A stretch of DNA of 64,000 bases from Sphyrna mokarran (GCA_024679065.1 JAGIQG010000012.1:87358001-87422000); one strand, 5' to 3'; shown: positions 3,573 through 56,289, numbered from the stretch's first letter. Numbers and translations: made by a program. The notes: generated from the sequence alone by a model not told the origin.

Positions 3573-5164
3573 CAAATCTCCTCTCCGCTTTCTCTCTCCC
3601 ATGGAAATCAGTCCTAATTTCTACAATTCTTCTCCAAAGCCCAGGAGACTGTGTGCTTTATTAACTGCTCTCTCCACCTGTTCTATCAGCTTCAATGAAT
3701 TATACATACACACACTCAGCTGCCTCTGTTTCTGCACCCCCTTTAGATTTGTAATCCTGTATTTACATTGTTTCTTGATGTTCTTCCCACCAACATGCAT
3801 CTCCTCACATTTCTCCGGGTCAAACTTTATCTGCCACCTGTCTGCCCATTCTAACATTTTGTCTCTGTCCTATTGAATTTTCAAATAATATTCCTCACAG
3901 TTTCCAATATTCTCAAGTTTCAGATCACCCATAAATGTTGAAATTGTATTCTATACGCTAAGGTCTCGGTCATTCATGTATTTGAGGAAAAGCAAGATCC
4001 CAGCACTCAGCCCTGGGGAACTCCACTACAAATGATGGCTGATGTTGGGCTGCAACTCCATTCGCTGCCTGTTCACCGTACGACCATCAGACCATGAAAT
4101 ATAGGAGTAGAATTAGGCCACTTGGCCCATCGAGTCTGCTCTGCCATTCAATCATGGCTGACAGGATTTTTATCCCCATTCTCCTGCCTTCTCCCCATAA
4201 CCCCAGATCTCATTATTGATCAAAAACCTATCTATTTCTGTCTTAAAGACACTCAATGACCTGGCCTCCTCAGCCCTGTGTGAATATGAGTTTCACAGAT
4301 TCACCACTCTCCGGCTGAAGAAATTCCTTCTCATCTCAGTTTTAAAGGAGTGTTCCTTCACTCTGAGGTTGTGCCCTCGGGTTTCAGTCTCTCCCACCAG
4401 TAGAAACATCCTCACCATGTCCACTCTATCTGGGCCTTTTTTTCATTACATCGACCTTCAGATAACATCAGCGTCCTTTTGTTATATTTTAGACAGACAA
4501 TGTAGGTTCCAAATCAATACTAACTTCAGCACATCGTTGATAGAAGAAATGAACCAAACTTCAAGTTAAATTCATGGGGTTGAAATTGTAGAAGTGCGTC
4601 TGCCAACTCCAGTTAAACACCGTATCTCTGTCACCGTATCTCTGAATTCCTCGACAGAGCAAAATCTCTCTATTCCAGCCTTAAATGTATTTAACAATGG
4701 AGCATCCACACCCCTCTGGGTGCAGCACTGGAGAGATGGTTGCTGAGTTAGTGAGATTTGGTGAGTGTGGACAGGCAGGGGAAGGAGATCATTCCTCATC
4801 CTCCCAACTTCACACAAACAAGCGTTTGGAAGTTCTGGGATTTTTTTGAATGTTCCTCTGTGATTCTTTGGGATTGGTGCAAACTGCCAATGGATCACGG
4901 CTCTCTGCCCTGCTGTACGATTGATCTTTGGGCTCATTTCAGATCCATAAAAAAAGGTAACAATGTTAGAGGAAGAAGCCATTATGTGGCACTGGCCTTT
5001 CATTCCAGGCTGTTAACTTGCCTTGTATGAAAGGGATAATTTTACCCGAATGTGCTGAGCAGAAACTGATGGGAACAGGTTCTGTCTGATTTTATTTCCA
5101 TTCCGGTTGTTCTACATTACTCAAACTGAAACTGTAGTGTGTGTAACATTCTGATATTTTACAG

Positions 5165-5315
5165 AAGAACCATCTTACAATAATCCTTGGACTTCAGATC
5201 CTATTGTGTTAAGCCTGGCTATCATTCTGCCCTTGGTTGTCCTCTTCTGCGTTGTTCTGCTCATAAGTTATCTTGTGATAAAAAGGTTCTGTTCATCAAG
5301 GAACTCCACACCAAG
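5165..5315 (+). CDS. Gene A stalk/transmembrane exon (EEPSYNNPWTSDPIVLSLAIILPLVVLFCVVLLISYLVIKRFCSSRNSTPR)
   Basis: Acceptor ttttacAG and donor GTAAAT, phase 1 to 2. About 25 uncharged hydrophobic residues are followed by KR. Conserved paralogous exon at 35397-35547. Confidence 0.85.
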
Positions 5316-6039
5316 GTAAATATGATTCATCTTGTGTCTGTTACTGTAACTGGACAGGGGCACTATTTTATAACTTGCTGCTTTTAGTGAGGAGTAACTT
5401 TTCCTTTGTAGCGTACAGTTCACGTGGAGTGACCTGCTACTGATGAGAGCCACACATGTCCAGATACTCAACTGGTGCCAGTCATCTCCCACTGTCACAG
5501 CATCACACTTACTCCAGCACTGACCAACAGGCACCTAACTGCTGCTGAGAGTCAGGAAGGATTTAACAGTTAAAGTACAAAACATCACCCTCAGGATATA
5601 AGTGCTGGATAATTCCCCACCTAGCCCACCTAATGAACTCGATCAGAGCGCTGGTTTCATGCCTGTGTCTCGCTAGCTGCACACTCCCTCATGATGCTCA
5701 GACCAAGTGAGAACATTCGAATGGACACTCTGTGTAAGCAGCCTACTTCACTATTACCCTCCCCACAAGGAAACAATCCAATCATATTTACCCATCCTGA
5801 TCAAGCTTCACAACATGCCTTCTGATTTTGGTCAAATTCTTTGTGTTATTGTTAGAGCAAGTTCTGTTTATTTAGGAAATGATTCAGTTGATCTTGTTCA
5901 TCCGTGGAATCTTCCATAAAAAACTCATATGGGAAATCCATATTGAAAAGTCTAAACTGCATCTCCACCCAGAGTGTGAATATTACAGCGCTGTTCTGTG
6001 GTAAAGCTGCAATGAAGCTAATGTGTGGCATTTCTTTAG

Positions 6040-6083
6040 GGTTCCTGATGGAGACCAGAACCCTGTGTACGCAACAGTGGATA
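6040..6083 (+). CDS. Gene A cytoplasmic exon 1 (VPDGDQNPVYATVD)
   Basis: tttctttAG acceptor and GTAAGT donor, phase 2 to 1, open frame with a YxxV motif. Confidence 0.8.
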
Positions 6084-7011
6084 GTAAGTAAACTAATTCA
6101 ATCATTATTGCAAAGTTTGTCAGGAATTATTCTCAATCCCAGATGTCCCTTTGATGCTGATGGATTTGTGATGTAATTAACTTGCTAATAATTTGCCCAA
6201 TTCATTGTCTGATTGACAGAATTTACTGTTAAAGGTTGTAAATCTACATCCTACAGAATGAAGATGGTGGGAGGCTGCCCCCAGCCTTGTAGCTGCACTG
6301 TGAAACACCCCCTCAGTGTGGCAATGCTGCAGCCAGTGGCTCCAAAGAGATAGAAACTTCCAGAAAGGAACAGCCTCCTCTGTGTCACCAGCATGTAGTG
6401 ATCATGCCTTTGTAGATCGAGCACATTGTCCGTTCACAGGGGGATTCCTCGGGATAGAGAAGGTTCAGATCTGACCCAGTAAAGAGTTTAAAGATGGTGA
6501 GGTTTTGATAGAGGGAAAATCTATTCCCTCTGGTGAACGGATCAGTAACCAGCGATCATCGATTTCCAATCACTGGGTAAAGATCTAGAGAGCAGATGGG
6601 GAGAAATGAGAGTTGTCGGGATGTGGAATACTCGAGCTGGGAATGTGGTGGAAGCTGATTCCAGAAATAATTGGAAAAGACAATTGGCCAAGTGCTGGAG
6701 GATAAGGAATTTCCAGGATTGTGAATAAAAAGCAGGAATGTGGGATTAAGGACAATGACTCTATTAATGACCTCGTACAGGCTGAATGGGGCAAATGGCC
6801 TCCTCCTGTTGTGTGAGATTCTAATTTGGATGATGAGTTTTTGAAGACAGTGCAGCTGATGGAGAATAATCCCCACCTCCCCCATTAGCTTCACTCTGAG
6901 AAAACTGCCCAAGGTGACACTGGGATTTTTCTATCCCTCTCATTCCAAGTTTAAAAAGCTCCATCTTTCCGTGGATCTATTCGGAAGTAACATCGTTACG
7001 TTTCCTTTTAG

Positions 7012-7055
7012 ATAAAATCCAGCGCAGCAAACAAGGAGCAGCTTCTTCTGCCTTG
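7012..7055 (+). CDS. Gene A cytoplasmic exon 2 (NKIQRSKQGAASSAL)
   Basis: tttccttttAG acceptor and GTAAGG donor, phase 1 to 0. Paralog at 37244-37287. Confidence 0.78.
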
Positions 7056-8653
7056 GTAAGGGAATGTCATACAGCTGTTGTGTTTTACTGTATTTTTCAT
7101 ACTTCAGCTTTGCAAACTGTTTCCAAAATAAGCAGCACGTTGTATTCCACAGGAGCACCATCCATATTACTGTAAGAATAAATCATTGCAGTGTTACAGA
7201 CAGGAGAGTGAGAATAACCTGCACTGAGTTCCCCACACCACCTGTCTGTCAGCAGACGCACTTGAGAATTCTTTTTGAAGAATGTGGCGGCTTCTTTTCC
7301 AAATCCTTTGGTTTGTGTGAATCAATTTACAAAGAAACTGCAGGAAACTGGAGTTATCATTAACTCCGAAAGTTACATTAAACCTGGAGAAGAATGTTCA
7401 CAACTTCCCACTCCACCACAAGCACACCCTCACACACACCCACACACACCCTCCCTCACACATCCTCGCAAGCACCCTCGCACGCACTCACACATATACC
7501 TTCACATACATCCTCACACATAGACACACTCTGACACATACGCACACATCCTCACACACACAACACACACATACCCCCATGCAGAGACATATAAAGACTT
7601 CCTTATACACTCACACACACCCTCACACACATACATACATACATACACACATTTACCTGACTCTCACACACCCTCATGCGTGCACACATTGAGGGTCTTG
7701 TGTGGTGAATTCATTGTCTTGACTGACTCTAACTCTGCTCAAACGATGAGCTTATCAATTTCAAATGGCCATCCACGTTCCTCTTTTGAACGCTCCTTGG
7801 ACTGGGAGGGTCCAAGCTGTGAGTCTGTTAGCAGCTCTGGGGGTACAATGAGTGTGGATGTGTGAGTTTCCTGGTTTCATGATTACAGGGGGTCAGTAGA
7901 ATGAAATGAGAGATTCCACAGGCTAAGGAAATATATTTTTCCTTGTACCTTCTGGGGACTCTCTAGCACAAAGGGCAAACTATGCAGTCATGTGACTAGT
8001 AGTAGCCATCTTCTTGTTTCAGCAGAGAATCAATTTTTAAAAGATAGCAATAAGGACAAAGTTTGAACGTACTTTCCGTGACTTTGTGCCCGCATTCACC
8101 ATGAGCGCAATCGGCAAAATCTTGTGAAAGCCGGAAATGAGAATCTCAGTGGTGATTTTTGCCACCCCATAGCGATGATGTAATGATGTGCCCGCCCAGA
8201 AAAGAAGCCTCATTTCAATAAATTATATTATTATTAAAAGGGTTCCCTCCTGTCATGTTGGTGAGATTTACAGCAGCTATTGAATGTGAACCGGGTGAAG
8301 GGAACCTGCTGGGGCCACACAGGTAGATTCAGACCCCAGGTGAGGGAGGGGAACATACCAGGTCAGGACCCTGGCATTGCCCCCAGCACTGGAGGGTGCC
8401 TGATCCTCGAGTTGCTGGTGGAGTCGGTGAATCAGGGGTCGCCCCGCCAACAAAATATCGTGGGATTCAGTCTCTGGTTGAGTTTTTTGCGGGACTTTAC
8501 AGCAGAGAAATCTTCTATTGCTGTCAGCGCCTTCAAAACCACTCCTCCTACCCACTATCCCCCCTTCGCGATTTCCTGGGAACCCTCACCCAGCGCCTAT
8601 TACAGAGTCTGGAAAAAAATAATCAAGGATTAGAATGGTACAAAAATAAAGTA

Positions 8654-10968
8654 TAGAACATAGAACATTACAGCACAGAACAGGCCCTTCGGCCTTCGAT
8701 GTTGCGCCGACCAATATAAAAAGCAATGCCCCTCCAAACTAACCATTCCCTTCTCTTCCATATACTTATCAACTAACCTCTTAAACGCCACCAAACTTGG
8801 CGCATCTACAACTGACGCAGGCAGGGCATTCCACTCCCGAACCAACCTTTGGGTAAAGAACCTACCTCTGATATCCGTCCTATAACTATCACCCCTTAAT
8901 TTAAGGCTGTGTCCCCTCGTGCTAGCTTTCTCCATCCTAGGAAAAAGGCTATCACTGTCCACCCTATCTAAACCTCTAATCATCTTATATGTTTCGATAA
9001 GGTCCCCTCTTAGCCGCCTCCTTTCTAATGAAAACACCTCAAATCCCTCAGCCTCTCTTCATAAGACCTGCCCTCCATACCAGGCAACATCCTGGTAAAC
9101 CTCCTCTGTACCCGCTCCAATGCCTCCACATCTTTCTTATAATGTGGGGACCAGAACTGCACACAATACTCCAAGTGCGGCCGCACTAGAGTTTTGTACA
9201 GTTGCAACGTGACGTTGCGGCTCCAAAATTCAATCCCCCTACCAATAAAAGCTAAGACTCCATATGCCTTCTTAACAACCTTATCGCCTTGACTGCCTAC
9301 TTTCAGGGATCTATGCACATATACACCAAGATCCCTCTGTTCATCAACACTATTAAGAATCCTACCATTAGCCCTATACTCTACACATTTATTATTCCTG
9401 CCAAAGTGCATTACTTCACACTTTTCCACATTAAACTCCATTTGCCACCTCTCGGCCCAGCTCTGCAACTTGTCCAAGTCCCTCTGCAAACTATAACACC
9501 CTCTTCACTATCTACCACTCCACCGACTTTAGTGTCATCTGCAAATTTACTAATCCATCCTTCAATACCCTCATCCAGATCATTTATAAAAATTACAAAC
9601 ATCAGGGGCCCCAAAACAGACCCCTGAGGTACACCACTTGTAACCGAACTCCACGATGAATATCTCCCATCAACCACCACCCTCTGTCTTCTATCTGCTA
9701 GCCAATTCCTAATCCAATTAGCTAAATCACCCTCAATCCCATACATCTGCAATTTCTGCAGAAGCCTTCCATGGGGCACCTTATCGAACGCCTTACTAAA
9801 GTCCATATATACCACATCAACTGCCTTACCCCAATCCACCTCTTTGGTCACTTTTTCAAAAAACTCAATAAGGTTAGTAAGGCACGACCTACCCTTCACA
9901 AAACCATGCTGTCTATCCCCAATCAATTCATTTCTCTCTAAATAACTATAAATCCTATCCCTAATAATTCTCTCCAATACTTTGCCCACAACAGCAGTAA
10001 GACTCACTGGCCTATAATTCCCTGGAAGGTCTCTCTTCCCCTTCTTGAACCATGGGACCACATTCGCTATCCTCCAGTCCTCCGGAACCACACCCGTAAC
10101 CAACGACGACCTGAAGATCAGAGCCAGAGGCTCTGCAATCGCCTCTCTTGCCTCCCAGAGAATCCTAGGGTAAATCCCGTCCGGCCCAGGGGACTTATCC
10201 AACTTCACACCCTCAAGAATATCTAGCACATCCTCCCTATCTACTTCAATACTTTCCAGTTTGCAACCCTGTACCTCAGTGTTCTCCACAACTACATTTA
10301 CATCTCCCTGCGTGAATACCGAAGAGAAATATTTATTCAGTGCCTCTCCAATCTCTTCAGGCTCCACTCACAACTTCCCACTGCTGTCTATGACTGGCCC
10401 TAATCTTGTCCTAACCAATCTTCTATTCTTAACATATCTAAAGAAAGCTTTAGGATTCTCCTTGATCCTATCAGCCAAAGTCCTCTCGTGTCCTCTTTTA
10501 GCTCTTCTCAACTTACTCTTTAGCTCCCTCCTGGCTAATCTATAGCTATCCAGTGCACTAACTGAGCCCTCAAGCCTCATCCTGACATAAGCCTCCTTTT
10601 TCCTTTTAACCAGCGAATTAACTTTTTTAGTACACCATGGTTCCCTTACACGACCATTTCCTCCTTGCCTGACAGGGACATACTTATCAAGGACTCGCAG
10701 TAGCTGCTCCTTGAATAAGTTCCACATTTCAGATGTTCCCAGTCCCTGTAGTTTCCTAGTCCAATCTATGCACCCTAATTCTCTCCTGATGGCCTCATAA
10801 TTACCCTTCCCCCAGCTATAACTACTGCCCCCATCTTCATGCCTATCCCTATCCATCACTAAGGTGAACGTAACCGAATTGTGGTCACTATCACCAAAAT
10901 GTTCACTAACTTCCAAGCCTAACACCTGGTCTGGCTCATTGCCCAGCACTAAATCCAATGTAGCCTCC
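8654..10968 (-). mobile_element. Young 5'-truncated CR1 LINE (end of endonuclease and RT; frameshifted)
   Basis: ORFs 10368-10958, 9411-10367, 9025-9489 and 8630-9037 with GDSDH, KSPGPDG, QGSVLGP and FADD; AGAACAT tail repeats. Confidence 0.95.
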
Positions 10969-11079
10969 TATCCAATATTTTCTTATTTATTACCTGGCAA
11001 TATGTTGCACGTACAGAGACACTCTCTCACACATTGCAACATTGAGATTACTCATTGACTTGCATCAGCACCCATTGTA

Positions 11080-11675
11080 AATGTATTTCAGGCAATTGAA
11101 CAAGACATTGGTAAGGCCACAATTGGAATTACAATTCTGGTTACCCTTTCATAGAAAGGATATTATTAAACGAGAAACAATGCAGAAAAGATTTACTAGG
11201 ATGCTACTAGGATTTGATGGCTTGAGTTATAAGGAGAGGCTGGATAGACTGGGATTCTTTTCCTTGGAGCGTAGAAGGCTTGGCGATGATCTTATAGAGA
11301 TCTATAAAATAATGAGGGGCACTGATCAGTTAGATAGTCAGTGTCTTTTCCCAAAGGTAGAGGAGTCTAAAACTCCAAGGCAAAGGTTTAAGGTGAGAGG
11401 GGAGAGACAAAAAGAGTCCAGAGGGGTAATTTTTTCACACAGAGGGTGGTGAGTGTCTGGAACAAGTTGCCAGAGGTAATAGTAGAAGTGAGTGCAATTT
11501 TTTTCTTTTAATAAGCATTTAGACAGTTACATGGATAAGATGGGTACTGAGGGATACGGGCCAAATTCGGGCAATTGGGAAAAGCTTAGTGGTTTAGAAA
11601 AGAAGAGTAGCATGGACAAGTGGGGCTGAAGGGCCTGTTTCCATGTTGTAAACCTTGATGAGTCTATGAATCTAT
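11080..11675 (+). mobile_element. CR1 3' fragment
   Basis: LVRPQLE..FSLERRRL.DDLIE peptide and GAAGGGCCTGTT tail. Confidence 0.85.
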
Positions 11676-11709
11676 AAATTGAAACAGTCTTGCAGCTTCT
11701 ATTCGACAG

Positions 11710-11760
11710 GGTTCTGTGGTCAGTAGTGAATTTAGCTACATATTTCCTGTGGGTTTCTGT
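11710..11760 (+). CDS. Candidate additional gene A cytoplasmic exon (GSVVSSEFSYIFPVGFC)
   Basis: cttctattcgacAG acceptor and GTGAGT donor, phase 0 to 0, so it fits between 7055 and 15713. It lies in non-repeat sequence but has no paralog or transcript support. Confidence 0.35.
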
Positions 11761-12049
11761 GTGAGTTGAGAGCTACTCTGGTCACTTTGCTGTTATGTCT
11801 ATTCTGGTCACTTTGCTGTTATGTCTGGCCCATATTCGAATCATCGAATCATTCAGTGCAGAAGAGGCCCTTCGGCCCATCAAGTCTACATCAACCCATG
11901 AGAAACAGCTTGGTACACTATCCAAGGTTCCTGAACATGAAGCTGCTCTTCAAATTGTGTGCAGTCTGTGAAAACTCTCGGCAAGTCTCGTGTTTTCATT
12001 CTGAACCAAACACCAAGTTATTGAGAATGTCGTTAGTTCCCTTTCTGTG

Positions 12050-14238
12050 CTGATGAACAGAGGGATCTTGGTGTATATGTGCATAGATCCCTGAAAGTTG
12101 GCAATCAAGTCGATAAGGTTGTTAAGAAGGCATATGGAGTCTTAGCTTTTATTGGTAGGGGGATTGAATTTTGGAGCTGCAACGTCATGTTGCAACTGTA
12201 CAAAACTCTAGTGCGGCCGCACTTGGAGTATTGTGTACAGTTCTGGTCCCTACATTATAAGAAAGATGTGGAGGCATTGGAGAGGGTACAGAGGAGGTTT
12301 ACCAGGATGTTGCCTGGTATGGAGGGCAGGTCTTATGAAGACAGGCTGAGGGATTGGTTACGATTGGTGAGCGTCGTTGGTTACGGGTGTGGTTCCGGAG
12401 GACTAGAGGATAGCGAATGTGGTCCCATTGTTCAAGAACAGGAAGAGAGACCTTCCAGGGAATTATAGGCCAGTGAGTCTTACTTCTGTTGTGGGCAAAG
12501 TATTGGAGAGAATTATTAGGGATAGGATTTATAGTTATTTAGAGAGAAATGAATTGATTGGGATAGTCAGCATGGTTTCGTGAAGGGTAGGTCATGCCTT
12601 ACTAACCTCATTGAGTTTTTTGAGAAAGTGACCAGAGAGGTGGATGGGGGTAAGGCGGTTGATGTAGTATATATGGACTTTAGTAAGGCTTTTGATAAGG
12701 TGGACCATGGAAGACTTCTACAGAAAATGCAGATGTGTGGAATAGAGGGTGATTTATCTAATTGGATTAGGAATTGGCTGGCAGATAGAAGACAGAGGGT
12801 GGTGGTTGATGGGAGATATTCATCGTGGAGTTCGGTGACAAGTGGTGTACCTCAGGGGTCTGTTTTGGGGCCCCTGCTGTTGTAATTTTTATAAATGATC
12901 TGGATGAGGGTATTGAAGGATGGATTAGTAAATTTGCAGATGACACTAAAGTCGGTGGAGTGGTAAATAGTGAAGAGGGGCGTTATAGTTTGCAGAGGGA
13001 CTTGGACAAGTTGCAGAGCTGGGCCGAGAGGTGGCAAATGGAGTTTAATGTGGAACAGTGTGAGGTAATGCACTTTGGCAGGAATAATAAATGTGTAGAG
13101 TATAGGGCTAATGGTAGGATTCTTAATAGTGTTGATGAACAGAGGGATCTTGATGTATATGTGCATAGACCCCTGAAAGTAGGCAGTCAAGTCGATAAGG
13201 TTGTTAAGAAGGCATATGGAATCTTAGCTTTTATTGGTAGGGGGATTGAATTTCGGAGCCGCAACGTCATGTTGCAACTGGACAAAACTCTAGTGCGGCC
13301 GCACTTGGAGTATTGTGTGCAGTTCTGGTCCCCACATTATAAGAAAGATGTGAGGCATTGGAGAGGGTACAGAGGAGGTTTACCAGGATGTTGCCTGGTA
13401 TGGAGGGCAGTTCTTATGAAGAGAGGCTGAGGGATTTGAGGTTGTTTTCGTTAGAAAGGAGGAGGCTAAGAGGGGACCTAATCGAAACATATAAGATGAT
13501 TAGAGGTTTAGATAGGGTGGACAGTGATAGCCTTTTTCCTAGGATGGAGAAGCTAGCACGAGGGGACACAGCTTTAAATTAAGGGGTGATAGTTATAGGA
13601 CGGATATCAGAGGTAGGTTCTTTACCCAAAGGTTGGTTCGGGAGTGGAATGCCCTGCCTGCAGCAGTTGTAGATGCGCCAAGTTTGGTGGCGTTTAAGAG
13701 GTTAGTGGATAAGTATATGGAAGAGAAGGGAATGGTTTAGTTTGGAGGGGCATTGCTTTTTTATATTGGTCGGCACAACATCGAAGGCCGAAGGGCCTGT
13801 TCTGTGCTGTATTGTTCTATGTTCTATGTTCTATGATTTGAGGTTGTTTTCGTTAGAAAGGAGGCGGCTAAGAGGGGATCTTATTGAAGCATATAAGATG
13901 ATTAGAGGTTTAGATAGTGTGGACAGTGATAGCCTTTTTCCTAGGATGGAGAAAGCTAGCACGAGGGGACATAGCTTTAAATTAAGGGGTGGTAGTTATA
14001 GGACGGATGTCAGAGGTAGGTTCTTTACCCAGAGGGTGGTAAGGGTATGGAATGCCCTGCCTGCTGCAGTTGTAGATGTGCCAAGTTTGGGGGTGTTTAA
14101 GAGGTCCGTTGATAGGTTTATGGATGAAAAGGGAATGGTTTGGTTAGAGGGTCATTGCTTTTTCTTAATTGGTCGGCGCAACATCAAGGGCCGAAGGGCC
14201 TGTTCTGCGCTGTAATGTTCTATGTTCTATGTTCTATG
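12050..14238 (+). mobile_element. Head-to-tail concatenate of three young CR1 fragments
   Basis: RT C-terminal peptides repeat at 12079, 12825-13582 and 13835-14215; two (TTCTATG)n tails at about 13815-13835 and 14215-14238. Confidence 0.9.
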
Positions 14239-14857
14239 TAACTAACAGGTCCAGCCCCTTGTAACATCAGTAATTTCTCTGGAAGAGCAACTTTTCAACT
14301 CTCTGCCTCAGCCAACACAGAAATATTCTGGAGTTTAACGTACAGGACCAGTAACACAATATGTATGACATTTATATACAATATGTAATTTGGACAGAAT
14401 TAAAAGTGTTTTGTAGCTAAAACCTAAACAATAGCAGTAGGAGTTGGCCATTCAGCCCATTGAACCTGCTATCCCATTCAATACAATCATGACTGATCAC
14501 CCAGTTCAATTCCAGCTTCCTTCACTATCTCCCTATTCTTTAATTCATTTATTATCGCAAATATTCCTGTCTAGGTTCCTGTAAGAAGCTGCAACACACA
14601 AAAAAAGGCCTTGGATCGGGAAGGTGGAATGTGTTGATTCCAGTTGGGAGAGATAGCGGCTTGTCTCAACTGGCTTTGGAATTTTTACAATCCGTTTTCA
14701 GGACATGGGCATTGCTGACTCGATCCCGCATTTATTGCCCATCCGTAAATGCCCCTTGAGAAGGTGATGGTGAGCTGCCTTCTGGAACTGCTGCAGTCTA
14801 TGTTCTATGTAACTAACAGGTCCCGCCCCTTGTAACATCAGTAATCACTGTGGAAAT

Positions 14858-15378
14858 TCCGCACTTGGAGTATTGCGTACAGTTCTGGTCGCCGCATTAT
14901 AAGAAAGATGTGGAAGCATTGGAAAGGGTACAGAGGAGGTTTACCAGGATGTTGCCTGGTACGGTGGGAAGGCCTTATGAGGAAAGGCTGAGGGACCCGA
15001 GGTTATTTTCATTAGAGAGAAGAAGGTTACGCGGTGACCTAATTGAGGCGTATAAGATGATCAAGGGATTGGATAGGGTGGATAGTGAAAGCCTTTTTCC
15101 TCGGATGGTGATGACCAACACGAGGGGACATAACTTTAAATTAAGAGGTGGTAGTTTTAGGACGGATGTCAGAGGCAGGTTCTTTACACAGAGGGTGGTG
15201 AGGGCGTGGAATGCCCTGCCTGCAGCAGTTGTGGACTCGCCTACTTTTGGGGCATTCAAATGTTCGGTGGATAGGCATATGGATGATATTGGAATTGTTT
15301 AGGTTAGAGGGTCCACTGGCCGGCGCAACATCGAGGGCCGAAGGGCCTGTACTGCGCTGTAATGTTCTATGTTCTATG
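14858..15378 (+). mobile_element. CR1 3' fragment
   Basis: HLEYCVQFWSPHY..RGDLIE peptide and TTCTATG tail. Confidence 0.9.
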
Positions 15379-15712
15379 TCTCTGTGGTGAAGGTGCTTGA
15401 GATGTAAAAAATCCCAGGGCAATATTTGGAAGGTTGGAGCGGAGTCATCCTTTAATATCTGGGTGACATTTATCCCTAAACAACATTATCACAGCCCATT
15501 ATCAGGTCACTGTCACATTTCTCTTTGTGGGATCTTGCTTTGTACAAATTAGCAGCTGTCGATAAAAAGCACATCCCAACAGCCTGTGACTATCTTCCAG
15601 AGAGAGAAAGAAACCGTTCAATTAAAAATAACTCCATTCGATCTGTTCACAGAGACATTCCTTTGTTGCGTTTGGAGAATATTTAGTGATGAATGTTTCT
15701 ATTGGATTTCAG

Positions 15713-15835
15713 ACCGGTGAAGGGGAATGTAGTTATGTCGAACTTCAGTTCCACGGTCAAGACAGAAAGCAGCCGAGAGTAAGAGTTGCTGAGAGTCCCA
15801 CAGAGTATTCCACTGTGAAACACATTCACAACTGA
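15713..15835 (+). CDS. Gene A terminal exon with ITIM-like and ITSM motifs (TGEGECSYVELQFHGQDRKQPRVRVAESPTEYSTVKHIHN*)
   Basis: ttggatttcAG acceptor, phase 0 (matches the donor at 7055), open to TGA at 15833-15835. Contains SYVELQF and TEYSTV (TxYxxV). Confidence 0.75.
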   Translation, partial: TGEGECSYVELQFHGQDRKQPRVRVAESPTEYSTVKHIHN

Positions 15836-16264
15836 AAACAAAACAACAAGACAAAGTCATCACAAGGTCCAGCTCCCTCTTGAACATTTCTAACGAACCG
15901 GCTCCAACAGCTTTCTGTGGGAGAGAATTCCACAGGTTCACAACTCTCTGAGTGAAGAAATTCTTCCCCATCTCAATCCTGAATAGTTCATCCCTTATTC
16001 TTAGACTGTGACCCCTAATTCTGGACCTCCCCAACGTCAGGAACATTCTCCCCCCAATCCAGCCTGTCCAGTCCCATCAGGATTTTATTTGTTTCCAATT
16101 TGTGGCTTTCATCAAAACACATCCTTCAGGATTTACAACTTTAAAGCAGGAGGAGCCATTCGGCCCCTCGACCCTGCTCCATAATAAGGAAAAGTCGTTA
16201 AGTTTTATAAATCCTAAAAGTGTGGACAATATGAAAGACAGGAAAGAATTTATATTTAGAGAAA

Positions 16265-16990
16265 GCTAAGAACAAAGAAAAGTACAGCGCGGAACAGGCC
16301 CTTCAGCCCCCAAGCCTGTGCCAATCATGTGCCTGAATGAAACTAAAAAATACCTCCTGCCCTCCCTCGAACCATATCCCTCTATTCCCTGCCTAGTCAC
16401 GTACCCATCCAGATGTCTCTTAAATGTTGTTAATGTGCCTGCTTCTATCACCACCTCCGGTAGCATGTTCCAGGCACCCACCACTCACTGTGTGAAAAAC
16501 TTCCCTTGCACATTTCCCTTAAACTTTCCCCCTCTCACCTTGAACCAGAGCCCCCCTCCCCCTCTCCCAACTTGCAATTGATACTTCCAGCCTTGGAAAA
16601 AATCTCTGACTATTCACCCTATCTGTTCCTCTCATTATTTTGTAGACCTCTATCAGGTCTCCCCTCAGCCTCTGTCTTTCCACTGAAAACAATCCCAGTC
16701 TATTCAATTTCTCCACACAGCCAACAACCCTCAAAACCAGGCAACTTCCTGGTGAATGTTCTTTGCACTCTCTGCAAAGCTTCCGTGTCCTTCTGGTAGT
16801 GCGGCGAATGCAACTGCACGCAATACTCCAAACACAGACGAAACAAGGTTTTAGAGATGCTACATGAATCCCAACTCTTGTACTCAATGCCCCGGCTGAT
16901 TAAGACAAGGAGGCCATGAGCCTTCTTCATCACCTCAGCCACCTGTGTTGCCAATTTAAGGGAACTGTGGACCTGTACGCCCAAATCCAA
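16265..16990 (-). mobile_element. Degenerate CR1 3' fragment
   Basis: LEYCVQL..RLRGDLIEVYK and VGAWNMLP peptides. Confidence 0.85.
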
Positions 16991-17189
16991 CTTATCCCAG
17001 AAAAGTTCCAAGGAAAGCTGAGGACAGTGGAATTGAAGATGAATGGGAGAAAGGATCTGTAAGAATCTGGAATGCATTGCCTGGGAAGATAGTGGAAGCC
17101 AAAAACCTTGAAAAAATACTTGGATGAGCATTTGAAATATCCTAACATTCCAGGATATGGGACCAGAGCCAGAAAATGGGATTGGTGTG

Positions 17190-17980
17190 ACAATATTCAG
17201 TCTTGGGTTGACAAGTGATAAGTAACATTCACATCACACAGGTGCCAGGCAAAGAGAACATCTAACCATCTCGCCTTGGCATTCAATGGCATCACCATCA
17301 CTGAATCTCCAACCATCAACATCATGGAGGTGACCACTCAGCAGGTACTGAACTGGACAGGCCTTATCAATACTGTGATCACCAGAGCAGGTCAGAGAGT
17401 GGGAATTTTATAAATAGGAAATCGCCTCCTAATTCTCCAAAATCTTTCCACCAACTACAAGTCACAAATCAGGAATGTGATTAAATACTCCCCATTTGCC
17501 TGGATTGGTGCAATTCCAACAACACACAAGAAGCTCGACACCATCCAGGAAAAAGCAGCCCCGCTTGATTGGCATCACATCTACAAACATTCAAACCCTC
17601 CACCACCGACACTCAATGCACACGGCTGCTACTATCTACAAAACACTCAACAGCAATTCACCAAGAATCCTTTAACAGCACCTTCCAAACCCACGACCAT
17701 TTCCATCTGAAAGGACAAGGACAGCAGATACCTGGGAACACGACCACCTGCAAGTTCTCCTCCAGGTCACTCACCATCCTGACTTGGAAATATATCATAG
17801 TGGTTGGGTCACAATCCTGGAATTCCCTCCCTAAGAGCATTGAGGGTTAACCCACAGAACATTGACTGCAGCGATTCAAGAAGGCAGCTCACCACCACCT
17901 TCTCAATGGGCAACTAGGGATGGACAATAAATGCTGACCAGCCAATGATACCCATCTCCTGTGAATGAATCAAAAAAAAA
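17190..17980 (+). mobile_element. Degenerate LINE of a second CR1/L2-clade family (related copies at 31040-32060 on -, 43260-44075 on +)
   Basis: Shared peptide YSPxAWIGA.PTTHKKLDTIQ and a shared 3' end with A-tail. The 31816-32049 copy has QGSVLGPTIF. Confidence 0.75.
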
Positions 17981-18227
17981 TCCCACCACTCTTCCTTATT
18001 ATTCCTTAACTTTCCCTTAACTGTATCGATGCCAATCGTATCAATGAGGAAATGGAGCAGGTTTTAAATCATTTATATTTGTATTTGTGGGGATTTGCAA
18101 TAAATTCTCGCTTCAATTCAGCTTCATTCTGTGATTCTGTATTTGTGCTAAAAGGATTAAATCTTCAATTTTAGTTTCATTTTTAAAAGTTGCTTGCAAG
18201 TCTGTAGCACGGTTTAAATGTCTGTAT

Positions 18228-19645
18228 TGTAATGATGGTTTTATAATGTTAAAGCAAATGCAGGGTTAAATAAAGAGGCAATTGCTCAGTAACCAGGAGC
18301 CACACACAGACAGTCAGAGCAGTTAGTTCCATTGAAAGAAAGGAACCCAGGAGTAAGCAACTCTCTCAGGAACTGCTGGAAAATGTGGGACAATGCACAG
18401 CGACAGAAAGGAATAAACAGGGTGGATTCTCGAAGGCTATTTCCCAGGGCTGAAATGGTCGCTATGAGAGGACACAGATTTAAGGTGCTGGAGGCAAGTA
18501 CAGAGGAGATGTTAGAGGTAACTTTTTCACTCAGAGGGTGGTGAGTGAATGGAATCGCTTGCTCTCAGTGGTGGTAGAGGCAAACTCGCTGGGATCTTTT
18601 AACAGAATTCTGGATGAATACATGGGATTTAATGGGATTGGGAGTTACAGATAGTTCTATGGCCTGGTAGGTATGGGTATGATCAGAACAACTTGTGGGC
18701 CGAAGGACCTGTTTGTGCTGTAGTGTTCTATGTTCTATGTAAAGCTAGCCCCAAGCTAAAGAACAGAAAGTCCTCACGTCCAGGGAATGGGACAAAACGG
18801 AGTTCCAGGAAAAATGTGAAGATAAAGGAATGAAGAATAGAAATCTGGGAAAAGGTTGTGTTCAGTGAAGTCAAGAGTAGAGAGAGAGGCTCCAAGTTAA
18901 AGACAGGGCTGCAGGGTACAGACCTGGGGCATGTCAGCTTGTGGAAGGTTGGTAACAAGTTAGTGCAGCCTGTGAAGCAGTTGTGTTCTGTTGGCACAAC
19001 TGGGCACCTGAGAGAGTGTGTGGGAGGTGAAGCTGGATGCATGTGGCAATCCTGGGCAGAGGAATCCCAGAAGGAGAGATTGAAATCCTGGAGGTAGATC
19101 CTTGGTGATGTTATCGAGTAAAAGCATCATTTGGGAGAAGATTCTTCAAGAGCAGTGATTGGAAATCCTCATGTGAAAGTCAGGGAGCCAGTGAGGCCAA
19201 TTGACTCATAGCATGATTACCATTGGTGGGAGGAGGGGGGAGGGGGAATTTGGGGTTGGGGGGTAGAATGGATGAGAAATCAACAGAAATTGTTTTGTTG
19301 GTATCTCTCACTTAATTTCAGAGTGTGGGATGTCCGATCGCAACTTTTCTCTTGGTTTATATGGACTGTGTGCTTACTGAGTATATTCGAGTTTATGACT
19401 GGATTTAGTAACTTGTGTTATCGCTAACAATCTATACATATCTGTAAAAGTCTAGCTGGGTGAAGGAATAGTGTGTTATAGCCAATCTGTTCTTGAATAA
19501 ATGTTTGATCTTTTGTTCAGAGTTGATTGGCAGTCCTGTGACTCTGTTCAGCAGCTCCATCCATGGATCGAAATAAAAAATCCATCAAACCAGCTTCCAC
19601 CCTGGCCTCTGACTTGTTCAGCAGTGACATCAGCTGCATGGGAAC
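18228..19645 (+). mobile_element. Possible solo LTR (paralog at about 44325-48200, split by CR1)
   Basis: Begins TGTAAT, ends AACA, with an internal AATAAA at about 19496. No clear TSD, so the assignment is inferential. Confidence 0.35.
18411..18740 (+). mobile_element. CR1 3' fragment specific to the first repeat unit
   Basis: Flanked by an AAAG duplication. The empty site GACAGAAAGCTAG is present at about 44498-44510. Confidence 0.9.
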
Positions 19646-21197
19646 ACTTGAGCCACTTGCTGTGAGTTCCACATTCTGACCACTCTCTGGGGAAAGATCT
19701 TTCTTCTCAATTTCTCATTAGATTGATCAGTGACTATCTGATATCGATGCTCTCTCTTTTCATTCTTCTCCACAAATGCAGACTCTCTCTGTCCCGCTAT
19801 CAAAACCTTCCATCATTTTAAACATCTCCATGAGATCACTCATGTCCTTCAGGGAAGGAAATCTGCCGTCCTTACCCAGTCTGGCCTACATGTGACTCCA
19901 GAGCCACAGCAATGTGGTTGAGTCTGAACAATGCCTGCTGAAATGGAGGGGAGTTAGTGATGGGTAATAAATGCTGGCCCAGCCACTGACACCCACATCA
20001 CGTGAATGAATTTGCAAATAATCATTTGTCTTCTGTTTGCAAGAGAAAAGAACCCAGCCTAATTATCTTTTCCTGATTGGAATAATTTCCAGTCTTGGTT
20101 GATCTTTGTAAATCCTCTTTGTACTTTCTTCAAAGTCTCTCCATCTTCTTTCTAAAATATTGACCAGAAATGTAAACTGTGGTCTAAATGGTGAGGAAGT
20201 GAGGATTGATAACAGCTCAATGAAACGTCATGACTTTTCAATCCTATCCCTCAAGACATAAAAACTCAGCCTTTGTTTTGTTTTTGTGATGATCTTATTG
20301 GTCTGTGCTATTCCTGTCAGTGATCTGTGTGTTTATTCTCCCAGATCCTCCCATATCTATTTGCATTCGACATTTCCAAACAATCTGAACTCCTTATTTT
20401 CCGTTCCAAAATGGAATATCGATGTCAAAGTGAATTTTCCAATAATTATTCTGTGATGTCAATGTATTCATGACCTCCTGTAAACCATTCCACACAACAT
20501 TGATTCTCACTATCACCAACCTGCCATCATGCTCGGGTTTAGGGATTGAAGAATTGAAGAATGTCTCTGTGAAATTGTAAACCACATCTCCATCTGAGAC
20601 AGAGAAGTTCTGAATAGTATATTGTATAATCATCAGCAAAGTGATGGGAGAGGTCATCAACAGTGTAATCAAGAGGCACTAACTCAGCAATAACCTACTC
20701 ACGGACACTCAGTTTGAGTTTTGCCCAGGGTCACTCAGCTCCTGACCTCATTACAGCCTTGGTTCAAACATGGATAAAAGAGCTGGACTCCAGAGGTGAG
20801 AGTGACTGCCCTCGACATCAAGGCAGCATTTGACTGAGTGTGGATTCAAGGAGCCCGAGTGAAACTGGAGTCGATGGGAATCAAAGGCAGGGATTTTCCG
20901 CTCCCGTTCTGTTCCAGTGAGCGTTAAAGGACAATGGGAGATTGAGAGTTGTCCGCTGTGTGTTACACTCTGGATGGAGCGATGGTAAGCACCAATCACT
21001 CACCATCCTTAAAATCTTACCCTAGGATGTGTGTAAATGAGATCCCCTCCCATCCTTCCAAATTCCAGACAATACAGGCCCAATCGACCCAATCTCTCCT
21101 CATATGACAATATCACCATCTCAGCAATCAGTCTGGTGAACCTTCTCTGTTCTCCCTCTCTGACAACGAAATCCTTTCTTAGATAAGCAGACCAAGT

Positions 21198-27590: not shown

Positions 27591-27642
27591 ATGATCAGTA
27601 AAACTCTTTTTGTTCTAACTCTGTCTCTCTGTGTTTCTGGGG
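27591..27642 (+). CDS. Gene B leader (signal peptide) exon (MISKTLFVLTLSLCVSG)
   Basis: gagATG start, hydrophobic core, phase-1 donor G|GTAAGT matching the V exon acceptor at 30004. Confidence 0.85.
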
Positions 27643-30003: not shown

Positions 30004-30707
30004 ATGTGAAGCTTCTAGATGTTATCCAGTCTCCGAATGTGGAACGTGTCACAGAGGGTCAGACTGCACGGTTACAGTGCACCCTGAGGAACGCCGCAGT
30101 GACACACACTGATGTTCACTGGTACCAGGAGCTACCTGGGAAAGATAGGGAGACAGTTTTAGTAGATGAACCACCGAACATCATAACCCGGGGTTCAGGT
30201 TTCACTGAGCGATTCCAGCCTTCCAGAGACACCTCCAATAACAGCTTCATTCTGACAATCTCCATGGTGCAGCCCAGTGACACTGCCGTCTATTAGAACA
30301 TAGAACATAGAACATTACAGCACAGAACAGGCCCTTCGGCCTTCGATGTTGTGCCGACCAATATAAAAAGCAATGCCCTCCAAACTAAACCATTCCCTTC
30401 TCTTCCATATACTTATCAACTAACCTCTTAAACGCCACCAAACTTGGCGCATCTACAACTGCTGCAGGCAGGGCATTCCACTCCCGAACCACCCTTTGGG
30501 TAAAGAACCTACCTCTGATATCCGTCCTATAACTATCACCCCTTAATTTAAAGCTGTGTCCCCTCGTGCTAGCTTTCTCCATCCTAGGAAAAAGGCTATC
30601 ACTGTCCCCCCTATCTAAACCTCTAATCATCTTATATGTTTCGATTAGGTATTACTGCTCAGTGTGGGGAGATATCAGTGGCAAGGGGACACAGCTGAAT
30701 GTAACCA
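30004..30707 (+). pseudogene. Gene B germline-joined V-J Ig domain exon, interrupted by a CR1 insertion (30296-30649)
   Basis: DVKLLDVIQSP..LQC..VHWYQ..RFQPSRDTSNNSFILTI..QPSDTAVY[insert]YCSVWGDISGKGTQLNVT|GTAAGT. All V-set hallmarks and the J-like GxGT motif are in one exon. The insertion creates an in-frame TAG at 30294-30296. Confidence 0.92.
30296..30649 (-). mobile_element. Young CR1 3' fragment inserted in the V exon, 5-bp TSD TATTA
   Basis: TATTA at 30291-30295 and 30650-30654. Near-identical to the 3' ends of the CR1s at 8654 and 48070. Confidence 0.95.
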
Positions 30708-35396: not shown

Positions 35397-35547
35397 AAGA
35401 ATCATCTTACAATAATCCTTGGACTTCAGATCCTATTGTGTTAAGCCTGGCTATCATTCTGTTCTTGGTTGTCTTCTTCTGCGTTGTTCTGCTCATAAGT
35501 TATCTTGTGATAAAAAGGTTCTGCTCATCAAGGAACTCCACACCAAG
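35397..35547 (+). CDS. Gene B stalk/transmembrane exon (KESSYNNPWTSDPIVLSLAIILFLVVFFCVVLLISYLVIKRFCSSRNSTPR)
   Basis: Paralog of 5165-5315 with the same splice sites; no charged residue in the TM segment. Confidence 0.85.
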
Positions 35548-36271: not shown

Positions 36272-36315
36272 GGTTCCTGATGGAGACCAGAACCCTGTCT
36301 ACACAACAATGGATA
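36272..36315 (+). CDS. Gene B cytoplasmic exon 1 (VPDGDQNPVYTTMD)
   Basis: Paralog of 6040-6083; AG/GTAAGT boundaries; YxxM motif. Confidence 0.8.
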
Positions 36316-37243: not shown

Positions 37244-37287
37244 GTGAAACCCAGCGCAGCAAACAAGGAGCAGCTTCTTCTGCCTTG
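37244..37287 (+). CDS. Gene B cytoplasmic exon 2 (SETQRSKQGAASSAL)
   Basis: Paralog of 7012-7055; AG/GTAAGG boundaries, phase 1 to 0. Confidence 0.78.
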
Positions 37288-38218
37288 GTAAGGAAATGTC
37301 ATACAGCTGTTGTGTTTTACTGTATTTTTCATACTTCAGCTTTGCAAACTGTTTCCAAAATAAGCAGCACATTGTATTCCACAGGAGCACCATCCATATT
37401 ACTGTAAGAATAAATCATTGCAGTGTTACAGACAGGAGAGTGAGAATAACCTGCACTGAGTTCCCCACACCACCTGTCTGTCAGCAGAAGCACTTTAGAA
37501 TTCTTTTTGAAGAATGTGGCGGCTTCTTTTCCAAATCCTTTGGTTTGTGTGAATCAATTTACAAAGAAACTGCAGGAAACTGGAGTTATCATTAACTCCG
37601 AAAGTTACATTAAACCTGGAGGGAATGTTCACAACTTCCCATCCATCACATACACACTCCCTCGCACATACCATCATATTCCCCTTTACACACACTCCCA
37701 CACACACTGTCATCCACACACACACTTTCATACAACCTCAAACAAACCCCCACACAAACCTTCACACACACCCTCACACAAACTTCTCACACACACCCCC
37801 TCAAAGTCAGCGTCACACAGCATCTACACACACCCATGCACGTGCACCCCTTCACACACACAACAACCCACGCACACTCACTCACAACCCACTCTCACTC
37901 ACAGAAACACACACCCTCACTCCAGTGCAACGCCTCAATCCCACATGATAGGTAAAATGGCTGTAGAGAGATTGGGCTAAACAAAGGCAATTGGGATGAG
38001 ATTAGTGGTAAAACTGGGTAGTATGGACAAGTTAAGCCAAAGGGCCTGTTTCCATGCTGTAAAATTGTATGACTTACTAACACACCCTCACACATACACC
38101 CACACACACACACACATAAAAGTTGCCTTTTATGGAACTCAGTTTATTCTCTATTGTGTCATTAAATTCTCCTTATTCTTCACTTCATTTTGTCAATTTT
38201 TCAACATTTCTTCAATTT

Positions 38219-39492: not shown

Positions 39493-39876
39493 TTTGCAAA
39501 ATTTGTTGTCAGTGATTTCATCTTGTTGTTTAACACAGTGCAGAGGTCGGCAATCCCCCGGCTGTCCCAGTCCCTGCACATCGTCAGACTGTCTGTGTGT
39601 AAGGTAGGACTCCAGCCCGTGGGGTGATTACCCACTCTCTGTCTCAATCAGTCCCTCAAGGCAGGTGACCCTCTGCTGCTGTGTTCCCTTTAAAGGGACA
39701 GTCACGGCATGGACTTTACCGCTTGCTGAATTAAAGTGTTTTAGAAATCCGCAGATTCATAGAAATATAAATGTCTCCAGATTATAATTCCTGACCCTTT
39801 GTCATCAGGATTTAGTACTTTCCCATTTTTACAATAATTCCATGACCTAATCTTTACAGTTTACATTTTGTTACAG

Positions 39877-39918
39877 AAATTGGAAGATTCTCCAGGAGAC
39901 TTGGACTCAATGTACATG
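39877..39918 (+). CDS. Gene B cytoplasmic exon 3 (KLEDSPGDLDSMYM), first ITAM tyrosine
   Basis: ttttgttacAG acceptor and GTAAAT donor, phase 0 to 0. Confidence 0.75.
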
Positions 39919-41122: not shown

Positions 41123-41165
41123 GTATTACAGCAAAGACCTGAGTCTATATACGGTGACCTTAAAG
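41123..41165 (+). CDS. Gene B cytoplasmic exon 4 (VLQQRPESIYGDLK), completes ITAM YMVL-x7-YGDL
   Basis: ttttctgttAG acceptor and GTATGT donor, phase 0 to 1. Splicing to the previous exon gives DxxYxxL-x7-YxxL. Confidence 0.78.
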
Positions 41166-42039: not shown

Positions 42040-42065
42040 GCAATAAACAAACTCGTGATTACTGA
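42040..42065 (+). CDS. Gene B terminal coding exon (GNKQTRDY*)
   Basis: ttttgtttaaacAG acceptor, phase 1, TGA at 42063-42065. The exon is short, so the call is less certain. Confidence 0.55.
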
Positions 42066-45000
42066 ACTACAGAAGAAGATATTTCAGATGATACCATTCT
42101 GAGAGTAGGGGAATCGGGACCATCAAGAACACGTTTAAAACAATGACCTCGTTTCATTGATTAACTCCTTATCCTCACATTCTCCCCACTTCCCCAATTC
42201 TACCCAGTATCTTTCCCCATTTCCACACTCCTCAGCAATCTACCTCCCTTCACCCCATTTCCCCATTCTCCTTTACGTTCTTCTCAGCAATCCATCCACC
42301 TTCTCTCCGATACAAAGTCCTAACTCCTGATCTTCCAGACTAACACCCAACCCAACAAACCATCCCCTCCCCTACTCCCTGACCCCACTTGTCTCCTCAT
42401 TAAATTGCTCAGTTCCTACTCTCTCCATAAACACTCCTCTGTGATCCATTCATTCTGCCTGATCCCATGGCCCTAGGTTCACAGAACCAGAGAATGGCTA
42501 CAGCACAGAATGAGGCCATTCAGCCTGGTGTCTGTGCTGACCCCCTGAAGGAGCAATTCACCAAATGTCACTCCCCTGCCTTTTCCCTGTAACCCTGTCA
42601 ACATTTGCCTTTCAGATAAGGATTCAATTTCCCTTTGAAATCCTTGATTAACCCTTCATCCACCACACTCTCTCAGGCAGTGCATTCCAGATTGTGCACA
42701 GTCGCTGGGTCAAAAGGTTTCTCCTTAAGTCACCATTGTTTCCTGTGATAATTACCTTAAATCTGTTTCCTCTGCTTCTCCATCTTTCCAGCAATGGGAA
42801 CAGTTTCTCCCGATCCACTCCGTCCAGACTCCTCCAGATTTTGAACGTCTCGAATTCAATCTCCTTTCAATGTTCTCTTTCCCAAGGAGAACAGTCCCAA
42901 TTTCTCCAATCTGTCTTCAGAATTGAAATTCCTCATCCCTGCAGCCATTCTCATGGTGATTACTGACACCAGAAGTGTGGTCAGATGGTCAATAGGATCG
43001 AGGAGGTTTGTGTGGGGCTGGAAGAAATTCCAGGTGGTGTTTATTGCAATAAACTTCAGATTTCAATCTCCCGAATGATCACTCTCATTTTTAGCTTTAG
43101 TTTATTTCTCTCAGTAGTTTTATACTCGACTATATTAGAAAATCCAGGTGAGCTGTGTAACTCAGATTTCATAGAGCTGTGTAGAATATACACACAGAAA
43201 CAGGCTACTCGGTCCATCAAACCCTACAGAATCTGTGCCCATATGGAGCAAAACTGGACAACATTCAGTCTTGACTGACAACTGTTAAATAACATTCACA
43301 CAATCACACAGGTGCCAGGCAAAGACCATCTGCAAGCAGAGAACATCTAACCATCTCCCCTTCACATTCAATGGCATCACCATCACTGAATCTCCAACGA
43401 TCAACATCATGGAGGTGACCACTCAGCAGGTACTGAACTGGACTGGCCTTATCAATACTGCGATCACCAGAACAGGTCAGAGAGTGGGAATTTTATAAAT
43501 AGTAACACAAATTCTGACTCCCCAAAGCCTATTCACTAATTACATGTCACAACTCAGCAATGTAGTGCAATACTCCCCACGCGCCTGGATTGGTGCAGCT
43601 CCAACAACACACAAGAAGCCCGACACCATCCAGGACAAAGCAGCTCCACTTGATTGGCATCACATCTACAAACATTCACTCCCTCCACCACCGACACTCA
43701 GTAGCAGCTGTGTGCATTATCTACAAAACACCCAACAGCAATTCACCAAAAATCCTACAACAGCACCTTCCAAACCCACGACCATTTCCATCTGAAAGGA
43801 CAAGGACAGCAGATACCTGGGAACACCACCATCTACAAGTTCCCCTCCAAGTCACTCACCATCCTGGCTTGGAAATATATCGCTGTTCCTTCACAATCAC
43901 TGAATCACAATCCTGGAATTCCCTTCCTAAGAGCATTGAGGGTTAACCCACAGAACATGGACTGCAGCGATTCAAGAAGGCAGCTCACCACCACCTTCTC
44001 AAGGGGCAACTAGGGATGGGCAATAAATGCTGACCAGCCAATTATACCCATCTCCTGTGAATGAATCAAAAAAAAATCCCACCACTCTTCCTTATTATTC
44101 CTTAACTTTCCCTTAACTGTATCGATGCTAATCGCATCAATGTGGAAAAGAAGCAGGTTTTAAATCATTTATATTTGTATTTGTGGGGATTTGCAATAAA
44201 TTCTCGCTTCAATTCAGCTTCATTCTGTGATTCTGTATTTGTGCTAAAAGGATTAAATCTTCAATTTTAGTTTCATTTTTAAAAGTTGCTTGCAAGTCTG
44301 TAGCACGGTTTAAATGTCTGTATTGTAATGATGGTTTTATAATGTTAAAGCTAATATAGGGTTAAATAAAGAGGCAATTGCTCAGTAACCAGGAGCCACA
44401 CACAGACAGTCAGAGCAGTTAGTTCCATTGAAAGAAAGGAACCCAGGAGTAAGCAACTCTCTCAGGAACTGCTGGAAAATGTGGGACAATGCACAGCGAC
44501 AGAAAGCTAGCCCCAAGCTAAAGAACAGAAAGTCCTCGCGTCCAGGGAATGGGACAGAATGGAGTTTCAGGAAAACTGTGAAGATAAAGGAATGAAGAAT
44601 AGAAATCTGGGAAAAGGTTGTGTTCAGTGAAGTCAAGAGCAGAGAGAGAGGCTCCAAGTTAAAGACAGGGCTGCAGGGTACAGACCTGGGGCAAGTCAGC
44701 TTGTGGAAGATTTGTAACAAGTTAGTGCAGCCTGTGAAGCAATTGTGTTCTGTTGGCACAACTGGGCAACTGAGAGAGTGGGTAGGAGGTGAAGCTGGAT
44801 GCATGTGGCAATCCTGGGCAGACGAATACCAGAAGGAGAGGTTGAAACCCTGGAGGTAGATCCTTGGAGATGTTATCAAGTAAAAGCATCATTTGGGAGA
44901 AGATTCTTCAAGAGCAGTGATTGGAAATCCTCATGTGAAAGTCAGGGAGCCAGTGAGACCAACTGGCTCACAGCAGGATTACTATTGGAGAGGCAAATGC

Positions 45001-56262: not shown

Positions 56263-56289
56263 CTGGAATAGAAAAAGATCAAAGTTTAC

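Follow-up and report, generated by a model that had tools for sequence, protein, structure and literature searches.

Two receptor genes of the shark Sphyrna mokarran share a homogenised front and end in opposite signalling tails, and we put at about two in three the probability that an old one-way graft of an ITAM tail onto an inhibitory gene, together with concerted evolution, explains the pair. Both genes, here unit 1 and unit 2, were found in a window of 64,000 nucleotides (G000:C224:87358001-87422000), the whole stretch of DNA that was analysed, which contains no assembly gap and has the character of shark-type DNA. In each unit the transmembrane exon is followed by two tail exons of 44 bases, of which the second has a phase-0 end. 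The tails then diverge: unit 1 continues with a single exon that bears an ITSM and one ITIM-like motif, unit 2 with three exons that encode a canonical ITAM (Table 1). By analogy, unit 1 and the ITAM copies would be paired immune receptors of the CEACAM1/3 or SIGLEC11/16 kind, and the locus would preserve the actual junction that turned an inhibitory receptor into an activating one.

Table 1. Features of the two units and their flanks, in window coordinates.
Feature	Position	Strand	Remarks
Unit 1 transmembrane exon	5165..5315	+	Hydrophobic stretch without charged residue
Unit 1 first cytoplasmic exon	6040..6083	+	Tyrosine motif; common to ITAM copies
Unit 1 second cytoplasmic exon	7012..7055	+	Phase-0 end; last shared exon
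Old dispersed element, unit 1	7182..8071	+	CA-rich interior ~7400-7690; both ends kept
LINE pile (reverse transcriptase) in unit 1 intron	8653..15380	.	8653-10967, 12045-14236, 14803-15378
Unit 1 last exon	15713..15835	+	CSYVEL (ITIM-like), TEYSTV (ITSM), stop codon
Repeat fragments private to unit 1	15864..17188	.	I2 departs from the unit 1 sequence at 15863, where homology stops
Truncated LINE 3' part, unit 1	17189..17930	+	Common ancestry with unit 2 copy; 87% identity
Spacer	17930..20720	+	Common to unit 2, partly to three other ITAM copies; absent behind I2
Unit 2 leader exon	27591..27642	+	52-base length taken from homologous leader
Unit 2 single-exon VJ domain	30004..30707	+	LINE end inserted at 30296-30649
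Unit 2 transmembrane exon	35397..35547	+	
Unit 2 first cytoplasmic exon	36272..36315	+	
Unit 2 second cytoplasmic exon	37244..37287	+	Phase-0 end
Element 5' end and ITAM-lineage CA tract, unit 2	37414..37945	+	Graft junction inside tract; element 3' end missing
ITAM exon 1	39877..39918	+	Ends two residues into first YxxL, phase 0
ITAM exon 2	41123..41165	+	Remainder of first YxxL, 7-residue spacer, second motif SIYGDL
Unit 2 last coding exon	42040..42065	+	Acceptor chosen over 41996: matches P0050 and P0057 ends
LINE copy, unit 2	43257..44026	+	Deleted in three other ITAM copies

The gene pair and its opposite tails

Self-comparison of the window aligned 4066-7578 with 34297-37800 at 97.2% identity; on the right, homology restarts at 17189/43257, where 17189-18410 matches 43257-44506 at 90.7%. 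These values bear out the preliminary description, which had the units homologous on both sides of ~7400/37630 and ~17190/43260. In 200-column bins, identity of the left flank stays at 95.5-100% to ~7265, drops to 90.5% in the next bin and then to 62.5% and 48.5%, the fall starting at ~7400/37630. The right edge is graded: LINE sequence with patchy alignment and 83-90% identity comes first, and 96-98% is reached only from ~17880/43980. A single clean break at 17190 was rejected, because identity climbs through the patchy, ~87% identical LINE.

The intervals between these edges have no common unique sequence, as had been described: word-size-7 BLAST of one interval against the other matched only the LINE, short repeats and the CA tract, with nothing across any tail exon. 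Colinear homology between the two tails, named beforehand as the finding that would speak against an exchange, was looked for and was absent. The share of multi-hit repeats is 69% in interval 1 and 41% in interval 2. Exon phases show that the intron following 7055/37287 is in phase 0 and confirm that either tail stays in frame behind it.

Tails were called inhibitory or activating by the motif consensus given in PMC2832619, and exon translations confirmed their opposition. The ITIM/ITSM label given earlier to unit 1 holds for TEYSTV, a canonical ITSM, but CSYVEL, with Cys at Y-2, is ITIM-like and not canonical. The ITAM of unit 2 reads D-x-x-YxxL-x7-YxxL and is split by a phase-0 intron, as noted for the CEACAM ITAM in PMC2832619. 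The gene model of unit 1 is open, with 483 residues, and consists of a leader (beyond an assembly gap), three V exons and the transmembrane exon ahead of its tail. Unit 2 is probably a pseudogene: a LINE end, marked by a 5-base target duplication and an in-frame stop, interrupts its sole V exon.

Misassembly, joining pieces of near-identical copies, would be another way to obtain such a pair. The V block of unit 1 lies immediately before the window; over 12,464 bases it has 99.95% identity with that of the inverted ITAM copy A3, the three V exons of unit 1 being equal to those of A3, and both blocks start at assembly gaps, located at C224:87270670 and 87345506. Moreover, 7390-7466 is bridged by no contig among those listed. 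The window is nevertheless gap-free, one contig of read run X1, which may be the source sample, spans 7466-8640 with 1 difference, the exon order of unit 1 recurs in homologues from 7 species, and the element in its intron is continuous. We therefore consider this explanation highly improbable.

Copies in the cluster and exchange among them

A genome search returned at least 6 transmembrane exons, at least 2 inhibitory exons and at least 4 ITAM exons. Five of the six copies lie within ~210 kb, three of these five inverted relative to the window, in a cluster whose neighbours are ligand-gated channel, ZNF395-like, HlyIII/PAQR and MCM genes. ITAM copy A4 is on another contig, and no V exon or leader was found upstream of it. 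I2, the other inhibitory copy, has a frameshift in its V exon and no first tail exon, and it carries its own unique sequence from 28 bases past the stop codon. No native donor gene of the ITAM turned up within the 464 kb that were searched, so evidence of the donor comes from other species only; the ITAM introns, searched for traces of the linker exon of carpet sharks, gave no significant match.

The V exons are germline-joined VJ: in intact copies among the 23 V exons, V through a J-like end to the splice donor forms one exon, which rules out rearranging Ig/TCR genes. The domain is a Pfam V-set and resembles Ig light-chain V in an atlas comparison (0.95), the tail matches being below 0.9; a search of solved structures returned antibody fragments only, among the 60 matches listed.

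The front shared by the copies is a recombination mosaic. Across 5131-7084, the six copies are split in 15 different ways by 38 informative sites, 347 of the 703 pairs of sites are incompatible, compatible sites cluster along the block (p 0.0003) and 0 sites unite the two inhibitory copies. Recurrent exchange in the block upstream of the tract is evident, and the tract is not needed for swapping fronts between tails, because any crossover in that block does so. With clustered genes homogenised in this manner and opposite cytoplasmic motifs (ITSM and ITIM-like versus canonical ITAM), the locus has two of the features by which paired receptors are recognised.

The CA-rich tract and the right edge

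The preliminary description placed the left break inside a CA-rich tract present in both units, a location that stands for the junction of the ITAM lineage but not for unit 1, which is continuous through the tract. Directly before and after the unit 1 tract, the sequence matches one old dispersed element; in 4 of 6 fetched element copies its two ends lie 0.6-1.6 kb apart and are colinear with unit 1. The ITAM copies compared, U2 (unit 2) and A2, have the 5' element end only. Because unit 1 keeps both ends and these copies just the 5' one, unit 1 is continuous and the ITAM lineage was cut inside the CA-rich interior. The earlier view of unit 1 as recipient of a cassette at the tract fails on the same ground, both ends of one old element flanking its tract.

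Tracts of the three ITAM copies that retain one are 89-99% alike and of one form. The unit 1 tract matches them at 71-73%, against 76% for an unrelated tract, the 1 of 4 controls with a usable alignment (a second aligned just 1-2 columns), and its likeness to the ITAM tracts is no better than to this one scorable control. Two of the six copies, A3 and I2, have lost the tract and kept their tails, the loss lying at 7356 in A3 and forming part of a deletion of ~7085-12005 in I2. CA/GT-rich tracts make up 1.2% of the 664 kb fetched (28 tracts, homologous ones counted in); because they cover so little, a break falling in one by chance is unlikely, yet this is a single event.

That the homology boundary lies inside so scarce a sequence class speaks for a reusable recombination site, repeatedly switching inhibitory and activating tails, as had been suggested. 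Several independent junctions at the site would mark a recurrent switch, whereas one junction type was found in this genome, the ITAM tracts having a single form, two copies keeping their tails without a tract and unit 1 passing through it uncut. We regard repeated switching as distinctly unlikely, and a reusable polarity switch in this genome, with a single junction type among four ITAM copies, is not supported. Contigs from public sequencing runs, among which no RNA run was listed, are consistent with a cut in the ITAM lineage: their depth, which does not equal copy number, falls in run X1 from ~60 on the shared block to 11 past the tract and in run X4, from another organism, from ~180 to 40 across it; run X2 is shallow, and run X5 has a depth of 2-3 past the tract. 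The same step in another organism fits inheritance and counts against repeated switching. An X4 contig end at 7399 was discounted as a junction, its loose letters resembling both tract forms in low-complexity DNA.

On the right, the shared LINE described as a bound does delimit units 1 and 2, but only 2 of the 6 copies have it, A2, A3 and A4 having deleted it. The two LINE copies have 94 shared derived sites and private differences of 38 and 30, and their 5' truncation coincides within ~10 bases. Independent insertions are rejected by the shared derived sites; the LINE inserted once, long ago, and borders a homogenised spacer. The right edge is best explained as a separate old junction that may have arisen in either direction, and the spacer may be native to the inhibitory or to the activating gene.

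The ITAM-type spacer sits behind unit 1 and not behind I2, which fits a double-ended replacement and counts against a simple graft.

In such a replacement, an old event that did not recur, the ITAM exons were swapped for the inhibitory exon from tract to LINE as a cassette. Both edges are indeed old relative to the flanks, the LINE being 87% identical against 96-98% in the adjoining sequence, and the LINE truncation is common to units 1 and 2. Against this, the unique sequence of I2 past its stop may be the native 3' end, in which case the spacer reached unit 1 only afterwards, through unequal crossing-over. We judge a double-ended replacement to be unlikely and retain the one-way graft.

Homologues in other sharks and known paired receptors

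A protein search found 61 homologues, and a second one gave no new sequence. Their database names are scattered or absent, some being SIRP-alpha-like, and a precomputed C1-set match is present in just 2 of the 61. The closest named proteins come from the ground shark Mustelus asterias (75% in the V domain, 91% in the ZNF395-like exon). The architecture of unit 1, a transmembrane exon, two tail exons and an inhibitory end, recurs in 11 homologues from 7 shark species, and 15 represent a second inhibitory paralogue, which in this genome lies tail-to-tail with I2. An ITAM or its remnant is found on a different transmembrane type of its own in 9 and on an inhibitory-type front in 5; the remaining 21 have no tail, other tails or are ambiguous.

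In a tree built on the transmembrane and first tail exons (32 of the 61 homologues and 5 own models; 29 isoforms, tail-less or other-tail models excluded), the transmembrane segments of native ITAM genes group in a separate clade (100/99), and the chimeras group by lineage with inhibitory genes. Because other sharks show the inhibitory architecture together with this native ITAM clade, we take the inhibitory form to be ancestral and the ITAM tails to be grafted. Holding 9 chimeric fronts as one clade was rejected (AU p 1.5e-88; 21 of 61 homologues plus 5) on ~65 columns and with groups named after the first tree was viewed.

Relatives had been proposed for comparison as a source of other tail combinations. 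ITAM chimeras do exist in other sharks, as automatic gene models, but in carpet sharks they join one exon earlier: with exon limits taken from protein alignment, in four carpet-shark chimeras the match to the inhibitory partner ends with the first tail exon, whereas catshark model P0046, which repeats exons and may be merged, joins after the second, as does this genome. The earlier join is a further argument against a reusable switch; in favour of the switch are P0046, joined after the same exon as here, and the grouping of chimeric fronts by lineage, which independent origins would also give. The different joining exons reflect either two grafts or one graft whose boundary was later moved by conversion. 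Tentatively, the genes might form an undescribed non-rearranging multi-VJ paired-receptor family whose activating members arose on at least two separate occasions, in carpet sharks after the first tail exon and in ground sharks after the second, by ITAM-tail grafts from a paralogue; the CA-rich transposon interior would be the graft site and may still yield alleles of opposite polarity.

Under the one-way graft, the ancestral gene would have been inhibitory, with the exon order that homologues show: tandem VJ exons, then the transmembrane exon, a pair of short tail exons and an ITIM-like/ITSM last exon. In an old event, a copy of it would have been fused with ITAM exons from a distinct activating paralogue, inside the CA-rich interior of the transposon remnant in the phase-0 intron, where the junction lies. 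This single chimera would then have duplicated into the four ITAM copies. Conversion and unequal crossing-over may have kept the front, from the V exons to the second tail exon, and the downstream spacer alike, with exchange halting where homology halts, the left limit being the tract and the right limit the old LINE. If function follows that of known paired receptors, both forms would bind the same ligand, unit 1 mediating SHP-1/2-type inhibition and the intact ITAM copies Syk/ZAP70-type activation that would counter pathogens exploiting the inhibitory form.

SIRP, NKp30/XMIV and NITR also combine VJ-like V domains with inhibitory and activating members. The SIRP ectodomain is V-C1-C1, activating members of the SIRP and NKp30 type use a charged transmembrane residue and an adaptor, and the neighbours of SIRP and NKp30 are the prodynorphin region and the MHC. 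The genes described here differ from these families in having no C1 or I exon in the models, an uncharged transmembrane segment and, apparently, other neighbours. SIRP identity was rejected, as V-C1-C1 is absent and unit 1 runs from its leader through three V exons to the transmembrane exon; the SIRP/NKp30 activating type is ruled out by the uncharged hydrophobic stretch and the intrinsic ITAM. A search for the opioid-peptide family, bearing on SIRP-type synteny, had no match anywhere and is uninformative.

CEACAM1 and CEACAM3 of mammals and Xenopus, as presented in PMC2832619 and PMC5112662, resemble the present genes in combining ITIM/ITSM and intrinsic ITAM members in one cluster, in occurring as pairs of opposite orientation and in having fronts kept alike by conversion; marsupial CEACAMs acquired ITAM exons independently (PMC2832619, PMC5112662). 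Unlike CEACAMs, the shark genes have an ectodomain of tandem antigen-receptor-like VJ exons, and homogenisation extends over the transmembrane exon and both tail exons, whereas in CEACAMs it mostly stays within the ligand-binding exon (PMC2832619, PMC5112662). SIGLEC11 and SIGLEC16 share with them a simple-repeat tract at the edge of similarity and repeated conversion, the SIGLEC pair being head-to-head; their boundary is a (GAAT)n tract, conserved across species and ascribed to one original duplication (PMC5701461). SIGLEC16 signals through an ITAM adaptor and has its tract at the 5' boundary, whereas the shark receptors carry the ITAM themselves and have the tract within the tail region (PMC5701461).

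The evolutionary logic is already known from CEACAMs and Siglecs, and the interest lies mostly in the family. A shark-directed literature search by title and abstract start, with thin coverage of subscription journals and supplements, found no description of it, and a shark family with tandem single-exon VJ domains is apparently undescribed. With several VJ domains carried on paired inhibitory and activating tails, this family would give cartilaginous fish a further, innate receptor system of NK-like or myeloid-like type. Interest in single-exon VJ genes comes from the search for kin of the antibody/T-cell-receptor ancestor (PMC12227049), and UrIg and UrIg2 are, like the genes here, single-exon germline-joined VJ genes of elasmobranchs (PMC12227049). 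UrIg is described there as secreted, with three C1 domains, whereas the present genes encode membrane receptors that have no domains other than V and carry signalling tails; identity with UrIg is ruled out by the transmembrane exon and the tails.

Inverted V-exon block shared by unit 1 and A3

Two inverted copies of a 12,464-base block (G000:C224:87345606-87358069 and 87270669-87258207, on the contig of the window) share 99.95% identity and carry three V exons, single-exon VJ domains of the shark paired-receptor family. An assembly gap lies at the start of each copy. The pair reflects either a recent duplication, which would have placed the same ectodomains on the inhibitory gene (unit 1) and on an ITAM gene (A3), or an assembly artefact. 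In both unit 1 and A3, the second V domain has serine in place of the first conserved cysteine (L026:3670-4012, a fetched stretch, and its inverted twin).

Incomplete copies, a possible exon and neighbouring genes

The features located are listed in the table. The orphan ITAM copy A4, on a separate contig, lies close to forkhead (HNF3) and WD40 genes, and no V or leader exon was found in ~70 kb upstream of it. Likewise, no V exon follows the third unit's leader in the rest of the window or the following 100 kb. The candidate cryptic exon has a second copy, at 79% identity, in the other ITAM genes; it did not match the linker of other sharks. For six homologues of the ZNF395-like exon, the length given for the longest contig equals that given for receptor homologues from the respective species, suggesting that this linkage is conserved. 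The second sub-cluster contains two additional transmembrane/tail types.

Features located in the window and elsewhere in the genome
Feature	Location	Remark
ZNF395-like gene exon	window 61142-61489	minus strand
Further sub-cluster, same V family	G000:C224:87885001-87985000	
Possible cryptic exon	window 39540-39605	phase 1-to-0; upstream of ITAM exon 1
Orphan transmembrane and ITAM copy (A4)	G000:C949:6933280-6945650	L034-L036
Third unit's leader exon	window 52574-52674	
Old dispersed element	window 7182-8071; also L067-L072	long CA-rich interior
Element with GIY-YIG	window 58430-59077	
Minisatellite	window 53554-53769	24 bases
Minisatellite	window 56288-57107	25 bases
Minisatellite	window 62787-63544	70 bases

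Repeats and mobile elements

We take the GIY-YIG element to be Penelope-like. Within unit 1, one intron holds two LINE pieces (8653-10108 and 12372-13827) that are inverted relative to each other at 96% identity, and a 403-base tandem duplication lies within the same intron at window 13433-14238.
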